A stretch of 64,000 bases of DNA from Podarcis filfolensis. Lineage: Eukaryota. Positions 23,625 to 56,057 of the stretch are shown piece after piece. How positions within the stretch are numbered: position 1 is the stretch's first letter; each line of letters starts with the position of its first letter. The notes under the pieces were generated by a model, which was not told the DNA's origin, did not search any database, and saw only the letters and a program-made list of their open reading frames with translations. Location of the stretch: the NCBI GenBank assembly GCA_964270895.1, contig OZ185436.1. One strand, given 5' to 3'. The position numbers and the translations under genes are program-made.

Positions 23625-24738
23625 GTAAATATTGCAGCCAAAGCCAGGGAGGAGGGGGTTAACAGTGTGAATGCGGTTAGAAAGACATGGCACCAGCTTG
23701 GGATAGAAATAGCCACAACTCTATTGGCACAGGCATTGGGCATGGATCCTGAATCAGCTAACCCAATTGCTGACTGATGTCGCCATTAGAGTCATACAAG
23801 GTGAGAGGGTAGCCTCCACTGATGCAAATCTAACAAGGAAATCCCACCAGGATGCCATTCAGGATGTTCTGTGGTCCAGGTTTTTGGACAGAACCCTACC
23901 CCCTTTACCAGATTACCTTGAGTTTAGCCTGATATTTGGGGGGTGGAACACCTACCCAGCCCAAGCTTTTGACTAAGGAGGCAACCCAGTACCTTTTTTT
24001 ACAAAAGTTGTGACAGCTGCTATGAGGAAGGCAAAAAACCCCAAACTGGCCCGATACATCTGCAGGCAAATTCCTTCCTGCTCATGAATACGATGACTGA
24101 AAAATTCAACAGCAGGGTCCTGTACATGCACTGCCCTTTTCCCATTGGGCAAAGCCACAAAATACAGAGAGGGTGAGTGGGATATCCATTCCGGACTGTG
24201 CTGCTGGATAGTAATGTGGCCGACTTTTATGCCTTGCTGACATCAGCTAGATATGTGGGGTGATGACCTCCCACCCTTGGTCTCCCTAGTTCCGCACCAG
24301 GCCGCAACTGCTGCCACTGTCTTGACCACCTTGCATGTAAAAGAAAAATGGCATGAGAGCCATCCCACATTGTCCCTGTACAACAGAATAGGGAACCTCA
24401 GGCACAGAGGTCAAATATGGCCCTCCAGGCCACTCTTTCTGTCCCTTGAGACACTCCTGAAGCCACATTGCCCCTGCTCTGCTTCCTCCTTGAATGCTTT
24501 TACCAGGCTATAATGCATATTTGAATTCTGATCATGCTTCTTGCTCACCCTGATGGGGGGGGGTGTCAATAAATTAACATTTGTTGTGCCACCCACTTTT
24601 GCTCCTGGCCCTGCCCACCACTCCCTGTGGCCTTCAGAAGCTTGTCTAGAGAGGAACGCAGCTAGAAGAATGCCTTGCACAGGGTATATACCATGTGGGT
24701 AGTATGGTGTGAAAGACAAGGCAATCCAAATTTCTTAC

Positions 24739-25563
24739 TGTCAGGGGCTCGGGAGCAGGAGCACAGGGGAGAGAGGAAATGGAGAGCGAAGGGGAAGAAT
24801 CCGAGGGCAGCGTAGGGGAGTATGACAGTGACCTGAGAGATTCCATGAGCTTCTCCAGCGAATCAGAAGATTCCCAGAAGGGGGCGCCGATGGTCAGGGC
24901 AAGGGGGGTCCCAGGGGGGACGCACCAGAAACAAGGAGCCAGCGGGGAACCCCAAAGCAGCAGCGGGGGATCAGGACCAGTTTCCCCACCAGAGCGTAGT
25001 GGGGGGGAAGAGTCACAGGTGTCAGGACCAGCGTCTCCTCCAGCGGGGAGAGAAGATGAGTCAGGGCTGACCACGCCTCCATCGGAGAGTGGGGGAACGG
25101 AGGGGAGGTCAGTTGCAGCTAGCCTCCCCGAAGGGGGAAGCAGTGACAGCAGCAGTGAAACGGTCAGGAGGAAAGTTGCTGGCTGGGCGCGCGTGCCAAG
25201 TTCAAATGTACAGGCACGAGGGACAGCAGGAGACCCGGATTGGGAACCAGCTCCCAAAGCCCGCCGGAGGGAGGGGGAAGGCTCAGGGGATTCAGCGTCA
25301 GAAGAGTCTAGAAAGGGCGAGACCCCGACGGACAGGCGGAACCAGAGGCGGAAAGAGCAGAGGAAGAGGTGGAGTAAGGCTAGAGTCTTAAACTGGTGTC
25401 TGGGGGGAGGAGACTCAGACGGAGCATCAGCGATCTAGAGTTTGAGACGTAGAGCTGCACGCTGCGGCTCTGGAAGTGAAACTGAACTTCAATAAAGACT
25501 TTCGTACTTAACAACGAAGCGGCGTTGGTCCTTTGTGAGCTGGGACCTCGGGCAGCTCTGACA
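24739..25563 (+). mobile_element. Solo LTR (825 bp, probably Ty3/Gypsy-type) in FLT4 intron 19
   Basis: Termini TGTCAG...CTGACA (inverted), perfect 5-bp TSD CTTAC at 24734-24738 and 25564-25568, AATAAA at 25491, CpG-rich against CpG-poor flanks, no PBS or internal region after it. Confidence 0.9.
24779..25438 (+). CDS. 219-aa ORF inside the solo LTR; acidic Ser/Gly-rich N-half and basic C-terminus; function unknown, coding status unproven
   Basis: Uninterrupted frame, open from the first LTR base; low complexity and a T-poor strand favour chance ORFs. Confidence 0.35.
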   Translation: MESEGEESEGSVGEYDSDLRDSMSFSSESEDSQKGAPMVRARGVPGGTHQKQGASGEPQSSSGGSGPVSPPERSGGEESQVSGPASPPAGREDESGLTTPPSESGGTEGRSVAASLPEGGSSDSSSETVRRKVAGWARVPSSNVQARGTAGDPDWEPAPKARRREGEGSGDSASEESRKGETPTDRRNQRRKEQRKRWSKARVLNWCLGGGDSDGASAI

Positions 25564-25620
25564 CTTACGCTTAAGCCTGCCTGAAAGAAACACACTTTCT
25601 TCTTGACTTCTCTACTGCAG

Positions 25621-25709
25621 GTCCCCTCATGGTTATTGTTGAATTCTGTAAATATGGAAACCTCTCCAATTATCTGCGGACCAAACGGGAAGGATTCAGT
25701 CCTTATAGG
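25621..25709 (+). CDS. FLT4: FLT4 exon 20: [30 protein letters not shown]
   Basis: ctgcag| and AGG|gtatgt, 89 nt. Confidence 0.98.
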
Positions 25710-52155: not shown

Positions 52156-53782
52156 AAATCAGTTGTAGAAGGCTGATTAAAACTCTAACAAAAACTGTGC
52201 TACAGCATGGACAAATTCCGTAGCCTCTCCCCCTTTATTGCCAGCACATGTGACAGCCACAAGTCTTCCCCCACCCCAGTGATACCCTGATCTTCATCTA
52301 TGAAATATTGATCGGTGTATGACCAAGATGGAGATGAATCTTTAACCCCAACATTGAAAAATGTGCACCCATAATAGCCAAATGAGTATTCTGTATGTAT
52401 GAAACGTGTGGATGTAGATGAAACACATGCTAAGCCCATTCTTCTGCTGTGAAGTAAATGCGTTCATTCTCCACACTCTCAATACAGTAGTCACAATGAA
52501 GGACTACTAAGCACCAAGAGAGGAAAAGCTGGTTGATGATACAAGGTATAACAAGAATGGGATGTTTATATTTAGTAAAATGAATCACAGTGCAATTCTA
52601 AGTGCTTTTACTCATAAGTAAATTATGCTGTGTTTAATTGTATTACTCCTAAGTAACTAGATAAGAGTCCCTTCTAAGCAAAATACATGGGATTGCACTA
52701 CATAATATTAACTTATTTATGTACTGCTTTTCAGTCAGGATTGGCTCTCACACCAGGTTCCAGTTAAAACCCACATAAAGGTACAATATAATTAAGGATA
52801 TATTTGGCATATGTCAGGAAGTCTCTTCTGGTTTTGGCAGCTGGTGATACAGTCCAGGCTCTTCCCTTTGAATCAAGAGGGTCAGAGCAGAAGGTGCTAT
52901 ATAGATAGACTGGCAGAGGGTAAATAGGCAGCATCTGTAGCTTGACATTTTTGTGAATCCACTGTCTGGCCAGCATATTGCCAGTGGGACAAAAAGTTTC
53001 TCTTCTATCAGGATATGGCTTAAGCCACATTTAACCCCAATGAAATGTAACTTGGCATATGAGGTTTTAACTTATTAAAAAGGAGCCAGAAGAGACGTGC
53101 TTACACTATGCACTCACCAACAACTTAATACATAGGCATATCAGAAGGAGCTGCAGAAGAAATCTTGACGCCCAGGCAAATGATCCTCATGAGACCTCAA
53201 CACACACACACTGCTTAGCCCGTGCGTGAGAAAGAGGGATTGGGGGGAAAGCTGTGTGTGTGTCTATGCAAGAGGGATCTCAGGCTTCACCGGCCTCTGG
53301 CATGTATTCCTGGTCTACACTAACCGGCAAAATCTTTGCAGGGTTTCAGAGAAGAATATTTCCCAGCCTTACCTGGAGATGAAAGAGGCTGGACCCAGGA
53401 CCTTCTGAATGTGCAGCTTTAGCACTGATTTTGGCCCTTCCACCGGAGCAAGGCAAGGTGAATTATGCGGACTTGAGGGGACTTGGGTCCCAAAGAAATG
53501 TGGGTTGCGCGAAGCCTGAGGGGATTTCTAGCTCTCATCAGAGAAGTGAATTTGTGAGGCAATTTCCTCCTAAAATGATGGGGAGGAGTGGAGTGTCGTT
53601 AACTATTATGTCAACGTGTGGAAGGCACAGCATAATGCGGGAAGGAAAAGGGGGCTTATGGCTGGGAAATGGAATGGCCGGTGTGAGGTAATTGGACAGA
53701 GCGAAGGAGTGATTTGCTTGACGGGTGTTGCTGCCCTGCTTTTGCTCCCTTGGAAGAGGGTATAATAATAACACTGAGCTTC

Positions 53783-54240
53783 AGTACTGGAAGACGCAAG
53801 AACTACCCACACTGGAAGAATGGCAGATGAAGGTGATAGACTATATGGGCTTGGCAGAAATGACGAGCAGAATCCGAAACCAGGGAAGAGAAGCAGCGCA
53901 AGAAGAATGGAAAAAATTCAAGGACTATTTAAAGAAATATTACAAAGTTAATGAAAGTTAGAATGATGTTGGACTGGAAAGTAAATGGTTACTATTAGTA
54001 ATGGTTAAGACAAGGAGAATAAGGAAGAATAGTCTAAATTTAAATTAAAATAAGGGAAGATTTGCTGAACAATCGATAAGAATTTGGAATACAGAAAGGG
54101 GAGGCATGAGGAAGTCGGGGAAGATAGGATATGAAATTAGGATATGAAATGATACATGTTTTTTGTTTTGTTTTTGTTTTTGTATGTTTATGTTTGTTGT
54201 ATTGTGTTTATATGGAAAAATAAAAATATTATAAAAAAAA
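53783..54240 (+). mobile_element. 5'-truncated L1 LINE insertion (ORF2 C-terminus, 3'UTR, A-tail)
   Basis: 17-bp perfect TSD TAATAACACTGAGCTTC (53766-53782, 54241-54257); frame YWKTQELPTLEEWQMKVIDYMGLAEMTSRIRNQ...EEWKKFKDYL resembles squamate L1 ORF2 end; AATAAA at 54219 then A-run. Confidence 0.9.
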
Positions 54241-54399
54241 TAATAACACTGAGCTTCGATCGACTGGTAACGGCGGAGGAGAAAGGGTCAGTTTCTGTTG
54301 GGAGCACACACACACACACACACCAGTCCTGCCTCAGTGTCCAATGAGTGTGTGGAGGGGGGAGGGGTAAAGCAATATAAGGAAGATACATATAGATGT

Positions 54400-55560
54400 G
54401 GAGCTGGTTCGCAGGCTGCCTTTTCCCTTTTCGACTGTTCAGCTCCCCAAGAACAGCGACCGCGCTGCCGCCTCTTCCTCAGCATCCAGCGCAACCCAAC
54501 TATTTTTAAACTAGCCCCGCCTCCGCTGCCTCAGTCCCTGACTGTAACGCTCGCGCACCCTCCCCTAGGAGTGGGTGTGACTTTTCACTCGAGTTCCCTC
54601 CCACCTCCTCGTGGCGGTGCGTGGGGGGAGGAGGGAGAGAGGACGAGGGCGAGCAACGGGTTGGCGCAGTGCGCCTGCGCACGCGGCGCGAGAAACTACC
54701 CGGCAGGTTGCGGTTGGTGGTTCGGCCGTAAGAACCCGCCCGGGCGCTGCCGGCTGCCGTTGTTTCCAAGCTGAGGGGGGAAAGGGAAAGGCTTGACGGT
54801 TGCTCGGTGGGTGGGGCTGCTGGCGCCGCGAGCTCCCTTTCGGCTGTTGGTCGCGCGGCCGGACTGAGCGAGGGGGGTGGGGGTGGGAAGAGGAAGAGGA
54901 GGGACCCGCGAAGCGGCCGGAGCCGAGTCGGCCTCCATGGAGCTTCCGCGGCTCCTGACTCCGCCGCAGTCGACCGCCTGGGGCTGGGGAGGGTCTGTGG
55001 AGGCTGCGCGCGAAACTGGGCTCCGCCTCGGGACCCGACAGCAAGCCTGAGGAGGGCCGAAGGCTCCGGGGCGGCCGAAGCAGCGGCGCCGAAGCGATCT
55101 CCTTGCCGAGCCGCAGGCTGTCCTGGAAGCGGCGGCGGCGGCACCGTTCGCCTTCTGTCTCTCTGTGCCCCTCGGGCGGAGCGGCGACGCTGAGTGACTG
55201 CTTCCCCCCCTCGGACGAGACTGTCGGCCGCTCCTTCCCCGCGGCCGCCCCCGGAGATACGAAGCCCCGCCGGAGCGACCGCCGCCACCTGCGCTTCTCT
55301 GCCTACCTTCATCCATCTCCTTGGCAGAAAGCGAAGCCCCAGGAGGCGAGCGGGCAGGCCCAGAGCTGCCCCTCTCTTCGGGAATCGAGTGACGGACTGC
55401 TCGGCCTCTGGAGCCCCATCCTCTGCTTTTAAAGCATTTGGATCCCACTGCCCCCCCTTCCTCGTCTCCTTCGAATAAGCTGTTGTGTGTCGTCTTCCTT
55501 GCAGCTGCTGTAGAGCTTAGGTTATTATCCCGGCTTCTTCGTTCGGATTCGTTTCCACCT
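54400..55560 (+). promoter_or_regulatory. RNF130: CpG-island promoter of RNF130
   Basis: Dense CpGs; GC box CCCCGCCTCC near 54515; NRF1-like TGCGCCTGCGCA at 54670-54681; no TATA. Confidence 0.88.
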
Positions 55561-55798
55561 TTTAAAACCCGATATATTTTTTAAAAAATCTCCTTTCCCC
55601 CACCATCCATATCATTTTAAGCTTCCTCCGGTGGCTGAATGTATGGAAAGGACTAGGCACCCAGGGTGGCTCTCTTGCTTCTTGTAGCGATTCTAATTCC
55701 TTTTTATTGTGATATGGAATAACATGAATTTATGCACACAATAATCTTTTGTTCAAGAGACGTTTTGAAGATAAAATTTACATTTTTTAGGGCTGAAA

Positions 55799-56057
55799 AT
55801 GTTCCTAAAGTGGGTTTTGCCTTATTGGAGCTATTTATCCTCTGTGCCCATTTTGGTCCTGTTTAATTGTTACACTCTTCCAGCTAGTGCAGATAATGCT
55901 AGTCAAGCATATTATACAGCCCTCATAAATGTGACTGTACTGAGTCCTGATCGTTCAACACCTACTTTGCTGATACTTGAGCGTGGGCGCTATGGACAAG
56001 ATTCTCCCAAAGTAGCTGTCAGAGGCCAACTTTTGGCACCTCTGCCAATCAATGGAG
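55799..56057 (+). CDS. RNF130: RNF130 (Goliath, PA-TM-RING E3 ligase) first coding exon: signal peptide and start of PA domain
   Basis: ASA|[16 protein letters not shown]...[27 protein letters not shown] matches RNF130 (human [17 protein letters not shown]...[23 protein letters not shown]); phase-1 donor G|gtaagg; next exon not in window. Confidence 0.93.

Follow-up and report, generated by a model that had tools for sequence, protein, structure and literature searches.

A young solo LTR in the genome of Podarcis filfolensis raises the question of why almost its entire U3 is one long open reading frame, and whether this frame is a gene of its own, the end of a larger one or a product of base composition. 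The first-pass annotation of the window, i.e. the 64,000 nucleotides of DNA analysed here, had described an 825-bp element with perfect CTTAC target-site duplications (TSDs), intact CpGs and an accessory-protein candidate in U3. The boundaries (24739..25563), the termini TGTCAG...CTGACA and the CTTAC repeats flanking each side were confirmed, and the CpG observed/expected ratio was 0.60 in the LTR versus 0.22 in the window. The frame, its location in U3 and the two promoter-proximal and polyadenylation motifs were equally found as described. The following features were assigned:

24734..24738, no strand: left target-site duplication CTTAC; repeated on both sides, empty site in other runs
24739..25563, plus strand: solo LTR of subfamily A, 825 bp, of an apparently Tf1/Sushi-type Ty3/Gypsy retrotransposon; linked to pol in L027 and L031
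24740..25438, plus strand: very probably the last 232 codons of the pol frame, U3-coded, and the stop, as a copy stranded in the solo LTR; acidic, Ser/Gly-rich tail, predicted to be disordered
24779..24781, plus strand: ATG, an internal Met in some subfamilies only, by comparison of copies
25328..25399, plus strand: conserved basic terminal motif, residues 197-220; low-confidence prediction of a helix at 199-216; a distant sister family has a similar motif
25387..25392, plus strand: TATA-like CTTAAA, 30 nt upstream of the putative start and overlapping Val-Leu-Asn codons
25417..25427, plus strand: putative R start and self-primer, complementary to the primer-binding site behind 5' LTRs
25491..25496, plus strand: poly(A) signal AATAAA, by sequence motif
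25564..25568, no strand: right target-site duplication CTTAC, repeated on both sides

In three of four DNA runs, contigs bridge the site with 830-831 bases missing, equal to the LTR plus one TSD, so the insertion is recent and an empty allele exists elsewhere. The solo LTR occupies an intron of a VEGFR-family kinase gene, presumably FLT4, in the region of the kinase domain, and has the same orientation as the gene. It ends 57 bp before the next exon (25621-25709), and its AATAAA stands about 130 bp before that exon; the insertion could trigger early polyadenylation or alter splicing of the host gene. A second GC-rich stretch of the window (53000-56000, GC 0.54-0.55) is not a copy of the 825-bp LTR.

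The plus-strand frame is open from 24740 to a stop at 25436-25438, which gives 232 codons, or 219 amino acids when counted from the ATG at 24779. It covers U3 and ends only seven codons into the putative R, which would begin near 25417. The U3 of this subfamily-A copy has 11% T, and the caveat that a T-poor strand eases long frames was a fair one: a frame of at least 219 codons appeared in 106 of 3000 first-order Markov simulations of the strand and in 7 of 3000 mononucleotide shuffles. The length of the frame alone is weak evidence; that the frame is real follows from the family data, not from its length.

Copies and subfamilies of the LTR

A genome search with the LTR returned 2710 first-look candidates, and the 40 that were scored were all 98-100% identical. 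The 30 copies fetched were nearly all solo LTRs with 5-bp TSDs. Three subfamilies were compared: A, to which the window copy belongs; B, with an 801-bp LTR of 89% identity; and the very young C, found by a search with a diverged U3 peptide, with 714-bp LTRs that were identical within both pairs checked. Preservation of the frame across copies, on which the earlier suggestion had been made to depend, was observed, since it is open in 27 of 30 copies of A and 28 of 30 of B, and selection was detected in this frame only (see below).

Length changes also keep the frame. The LTR lengths of 714, 771, 801, 810, 813, 816 and 825 bp are all divisible by three; among the length classes with at least four copies this holds for 7 of 12, including the four largest, and each of the remaining five deviates by one base from such a class.

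The frame in full-length elements

In full-length elements the order of pol is PR-RT-RH-IN-SH3-degenerate chromodomain-acidic spacer, and the frame runs on into U3 with no stop. All 14 subfamily-C 3' LTRs among 30 loci fetched lie inside frames of 1495-1868 aa. The U3-peptide search that had yielded these loci, with a query covering U3 only, gave frames longer than 1100 aa in 70 of 150 rows, the rest being mostly their 5' LTR partners. In the elements L153 and L154, pol is open through the polypurine tract (PPT) and U3 to the homologous stop, and in the B-like element L160 it is open to the U3 stop; the stop of the extended pol lies 125 nt before the LTR end. The same U3 tail ends the P. muralis UniRef Pol entries P0009 and P0010, and P0006 (P. 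lilfordi) and P0014 also cross the pol/LTR junction in frame. Four runs presumed to be RNA gave contigs over pol and U3, which carry no information on start, strand or level and were given no weight. As to whether the ORF begins in the internal region of full-length elements, it does so there as a continuation of pol and not as a gene of its own.

Two very young lineages (L153:1278-6884 and L154:514-6134) differ by 13 bp in LTR spacing. In one, a single frame of 1868 codons holds both gag and pol; in the other, gag (383) and pol (1512) occupy frames of their own, with a slippery-looking site that we take to resemble that of PEG10. The single-frame form was commoner in the U3-peptide search, which suggests that Gag and Pol are balanced in another way or helped in trans.

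The main result against a read-through of pol came from subfamilies A and B. For an unbiased sample of the junction, 60 A/B elements were picked by the DNA upstream of it (30 with an A query, 30 with a B query). At LTR entry 29 were in frame and 22 and 9 were shifted into the other two frames; 15 were open to the U3 stop. In-frame entry was found for 20 of 30 elements with the B query and 9 of 30 with the A query. Small differences in length underlie the shifts and fall largely in the PPT's purine runs; 13 changes are scattered on the tree, and near-identical copies differ in their state. This scatter suggests repeated slips in base runs or assembly error. Among the survey elements closest to the 825-bp LTR no fully open copy was found, so that the case for read-through in subfamily A comes from its relatives. 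Searches with P0007 and P0008 were left out of these frame counts because both queries are frameshifted and enriched broken copies. L027 serves as 3' LTR to an element encoding PR, RT, RNase H and integrase, whose pol terminates in a different frame at 77 nt within that LTR; a separate U3 ORF, considered on this ground, was dropped after the long frames of subfamily C.

Priming, putative transcription start and classification

The primer-binding site (PBS) behind the 5' LTRs is complementary over 9-12 nt to a segment of the LTR that lies 146-148 nt from its end, and the PBS and its complement change together in several subfamilies. We infer that transcription starts about 147 nt before the LTR end, near 25417 in the window, which is 30 nt past the CTTAAA and upstream of the AATAAA at 25491. 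Because this putative start is downstream of nearly the whole frame, U3 would be transcribed only in the 3' LTR of the genomic RNA, and a solo LTR would transcribe almost none of the frame from its own promoter.

The elements have TG...CA LTR ends, a TSD, a PPT preceding the 3' LTR, and gag and pol in the order PR-RT-RH-IN (Pfam) with Ty3-like enzymes and no env, as is typical of Ty3/Gypsy. The best solved match of the element's protein was Ty3 Gag-Pol (E 8.6e-135), and no further long sense ORF stands between pol and the LTR in L153 and L154. A Tf1/Sushi-type placement fits the structure, the LTR ends, the SH3_Tf2-1 domain and the priming. The Pfam Chromo model gave no match in the element's own family. 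The corresponding segment can nevertheless be aligned to a sister family's chromodomain that Pfam does recognise (identity at 19 of 55 residues, E 3e-05), the Trp and Tyr of that domain being replaced; the segment (L027:873-1040) has lost the aromatic residues of the sister families, yet stays under purifying selection (omega 0.10). By alignment, the chromodomain of the family is probably a degenerate homologue.

These results bear on the proposal of an independent accessory protein of the sag or nef kind, whose source would be a spliced or subgenomic RNA, reinitiation at the ATG of subfamily A or release from Pol by the protease. We consider it improbable. Of the intact copies, 35 of the 42 with an 825-bp LTR and 14 of the 16 with an 810-bp LTR have the ATG in good context, but none of the 43 with 801 bp and none of the 30 with 714 bp has it, so that the subfamilies have no start codon in common such as a sag/nef-type gene would have, and the codons upstream of the ATG are likewise kept in frame. 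In many full-length copies of the A type, pol terminates just behind the ATG, 74 nt inside the LTR, which would suit a separate product; the youngest elements, like those of other species, have the frame joined to pol without a break. The putative start site would moreover lie downstream of the frame, about 640 nt downstream of the ATG. Selection on the frame is compatible with any translated product. The accessory protein starting at 24779, as the first-pass annotation had it, was accordingly given up in favour of a continuation of pol.

Purifying selection on the U3-coded frame

The U3 frame is under protein-level purifying selection that is about as strong as on the internal acidic spacer of pol. 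Codon tests were conducted on 130 distinct frames among the 152 intact LTRs of 232 extracted, broken copies being excluded. Between the window copy and subfamily C, the differences at codon positions 1/2/3 were 45/39/100 over 195 codons, and 36/32/71 without CpG sites (p 6e-8). The corresponding dN/dS was 0.20 (CI 0.11-0.32), as against 1.45 and 1.14 in the other plus-strand frames. Private non-CpG mutations, which served as neutral control, were evenly distributed over the codon positions (23/23/23 and 15/18/14). The lineages C1 and C2 differed at 2/2/15 positions. A closer pair without CpG sites gave a non-significant 13/17/24 (p 0.10), and tests of private versus shared positions within subfamilies were not significant either (p 0.43 and 0.27).

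The GY codon model of IQ-TREE, applied to 10 real copies, returned an omega of 0.31 in the frame, 2.35 and 1.49 in the other plus-strand frames and 2.18, 0.39 and 1.79 in those of the minus strand. The minus-strand frame with 0.39 shares its third positions with the U3 frame and has many stops. Along pol, omega between C and B-like elements was 0.05-0.09 for the enzymes, 0.10 for the chromodomain-like region, 0.26 for the internal acidic spacer and 0.21 for U3, with a dS of 1.2 in U3 versus 1.04 in RT and IN. The table of domains for C1 versus C2 ends at the chromodomain, where there were zero synonymous changes.

The tail, its terminal motif and sister families

No match in Pfam, the ESM Atlas or structure prediction points to a function of the U3 tail. 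Neither the U3 peptide nor the antisense frame matched a Pfam family at E up to 1, and the ESM Atlas held no usable match for the U3 peptide and, for the longer tail, only SH3/Chromo leads below 0.9. HMMER over 1.84 billion representatives yielded seven matches, four of them family members (P0005, P0013, P0014 and P0007) and three low-complexity-looking; the named homologues are from Podarcis lizards. Gene predictors already annotate frames of solo LTRs as hypothetical proteins. Eight tail sequences of 52-88% identity align with 26 invariant columns. From an eight-row alignment AlphaFold2 predicts, at low confidence (mean pLDDT 47.7), a tail that would be disordered except for a single basic helix at 199-216.

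A similar terminal motif is found in the distant sister family D, whose LTRs of 408-435 bp have no DNA similarity to the 825-bp family. In all four elements checked, pol extends 100-109 codons into the 3' LTR; 20 loci had been picked with a query spanning the tail and are thus no test of the frame. The end of the family-D protein, RRKLSRRESRRRVSVKELLCW, is identical to the motif of the 825-bp family at 10 of 24 residues without gaps. None of 300 global shuffles reached its score, nor did any of 300 local ones, where the margin was small (53 versus 52). Part of the motif overlaps the TATA-like site, and some of its conservation may therefore be at the DNA level. Family D also has the PBS complementarity expected of self-priming. 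In both LTR families the stop lies just past the putative R start, 104-125 nt from the LTR end.

In the decayed family E, 3 of 19 scored copies are open for about 350-360 nt into the LTR and a fourth for 283 nt; these three copies and one P. muralis entry indicate that pol likely reads into the LTR there as well. The family-E tail (C-terminus of P0022; L292 and L322) ends in a PRRSARL-like motif. To us, this end recalls the nucleosome-binding core of HMGN proteins. P0021 and P0022 are distant Pol proteins with Pfam-positive chromodomains and tails that end acidic, then basic.

The frame might instead be kept open for the sake of the RNA. Long 3' UTRs are sensitive to decay, and a pol stop near the poly(A) site would avoid a 3' UTR of 700 nt and nonsense-mediated decay, the peptide being a tolerated, composition-limited appendage with no binding role. 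The position of the stop just after the putative R start in two LTR families without DNA similarity agrees with this explanation, as does the middle of the tail, which tolerates in-frame deletions of up to 37 codons. Avoidance of stops alone would not, however, yield a dN/dS of 0.2, blocks of invariant residues or a terminal motif common to two families, and we assign the explanation a low probability.

That the frame is a chance product of the G-rich, T-poor strand in a young family is highly unlikely and already refuted by the codon-position and dN/dS tests: the simulated frames of equal or greater length and an open antisense frame would allow it, but the third-position excess between lineages is absent among private mutations, LTR length changes stay in frame, the tail is conserved in other lizards and the antisense frame has a dN/dS above 1. 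For the latter reason a coding role of the antisense frame was dropped as well, and this frame is regarded as a shadow.

Proposed role of the U3-coded tail

Very probably, pol continues into U3, selection on its U3 part acts on the encoded protein, and transcription starts about 147 nt before the LTR end, with U3 transcribed only in the 3' LTR. We also consider it likely that the U3 frame is the 3' end of pol, passing through the PPT and the whole of U3, and that it supplies the integrase with a long, acidic and disordered tail whose final basic helix would serve nuclear import and chromatin tethering. The genomic RNA would be translated into Gag and Gag-Pol, via a -1 shift or in a single frame. 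The U3 copies in the 5' LTR and in every solo LTR would be silent, as products of reverse transcription and of LTR-LTR recombination. As integrase is the last domain of Pol, the tail would stay on it unless removed by the protease. The integrase would then carry the degenerate chromodomain together with some 160 internal acidic residues and a further 195-232 encoded by U3.

If Ty1 integrase and plant CRM elements are a guide, the terminal basic motif may bring about nuclear entry of the integration complex and/or its attachment to chromatin, conceivably as a substitute for the degenerate chromodomain; we see this as an evenly balanced possibility. More speculative, and rather unlikely, is a version in which vertebrate Sushi-type chromoviruses would use their whole U3 as both promoter and integrase code, and the basic helix common to distant lizard families would be a chromatin-targeting domain hitherto undescribed. 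Such a domain would have converged with the plant CR motif, would replace the decaying chromodomain and would set the insertion sites.

Comparison with known systems

In MMTV sag and HIV nef, protein code overlaps U3, is present in both LTRs after reverse transcription and is expressed from the 3' LTR copy. Both are separate genes with their own start on a spliced RNA. The lizard element has the coding overlap with U3 in common with them, whereas its frame is an extension of pol without a conserved start.

The closest known layout is found in plants. According to the accessible parts of the reports, pol reaches into the 3' LTR of every group A CRM element, where the LTR encodes the CR motif (PMC3059260), and likewise in some beet chromoviruses (PMC3605345); the CR domain sits on a tether (PMC11302176). 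The layout as such is already described. The lizard element shares with CRM group A a polyprotein frame that enters the 3' LTR, but is not a member of it. It keeps an apparently degenerate chromodomain upstream of the PPT, its frame spans all of U3 and the TATA-like site with 195-232 codons, and its tail has neither a match to the CR motif nor the TRARAR/K motif, as given in the accessible part of the source (PMC11302176). It is predicted to prime itself, whereas CRM is described as primed by tRNA-Met, and its young copies, among the best matches listed, are not confined to one chromosomal region. In short, the U3 frame is real and selected, in a layout known from plant CRM.

A self-priming arrangement has been reported for the Tf1/Sushi group in the part of the source at hand (PMC6317226). 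With this group the lizard element has in common a Gag with a CCHC knuckle, the order PR-RT-RH-IN-SH3, a probable chromodomain homologue, a 5-bp TSD and predicted self-priming (PMC6317226; PMC3601003). The available text on Sushi, which concerns mostly zebrafish LTRs, describes U3 as T-rich, unlike the lizard U3 with its 11% T and coding content (PMC3601003). The lizard LTR ends match the Sushi consensus TGTYANR...CNTNACA, as given there, at 6 of 7 positions on each side.

Ty1 belongs to the Copia elements, and its integrase tail is not known to be LTR-encoded. The C-terminus of Ty1 integrase contains a bipartite NLS region that binds AC40 and directs insertion, according to the accessible part of the source (PMC7459421). 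A short basic signal at the very end is common to both proteins, and Ty1 serves as a model for the function suggested here (PMC7459421). There is no sequence similarity between the Ty1 tail as described there and that of the lizard element.

The literature searched contained no description of a vertebrate Gypsy element whose pol is read through U3; an earlier mention may exist. An apparent LTR accessory gene becomes a measurable case of a single sequence with two uses, promoter and protein code; the vertebrate retrotransposon family in question is highly abundant and has been active recently. To our knowledge, little is known of how vertebrate Ty3/Gypsy elements choose their insertion sites, and a short selected motif at the integrase end is now named that can be directly tested for nuclear import or chromatin binding. 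For annotation, ORFs in solo LTRs of this group should be read as stranded pol ends.

Distribution of insertions

Locations were counted among the best matches listed only. Of the young C elements, 9 of 68 lay within 1 Mb of a contig end (2.6% expected), a mild enrichment, the other 59 lay farther away, in the chromosome arms, and none was on C19, which may be a W-like, low-recombination chromosome. The LTR matches were spread, with 8 of 70 near contig ends. The older full-length A/B elements were within 1 Mb of a contig end in 42 of 50 cases, and 29 more were on C19. As the young copies are mostly in the arms, the positions of the matches listed do not support a strict CRM-like targeting of centromeres; they fit a loss by solo-LTR formation in the arms better.

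Some copies are inserted in elements of their own family or stand in tandem with them (L032:57-1851, G000:C4:63110184/63116030 and G000:C14:216-11205); among these cases are an LTR with its TSD inside the start of gag and arrays with a spacing of 2572 bp.
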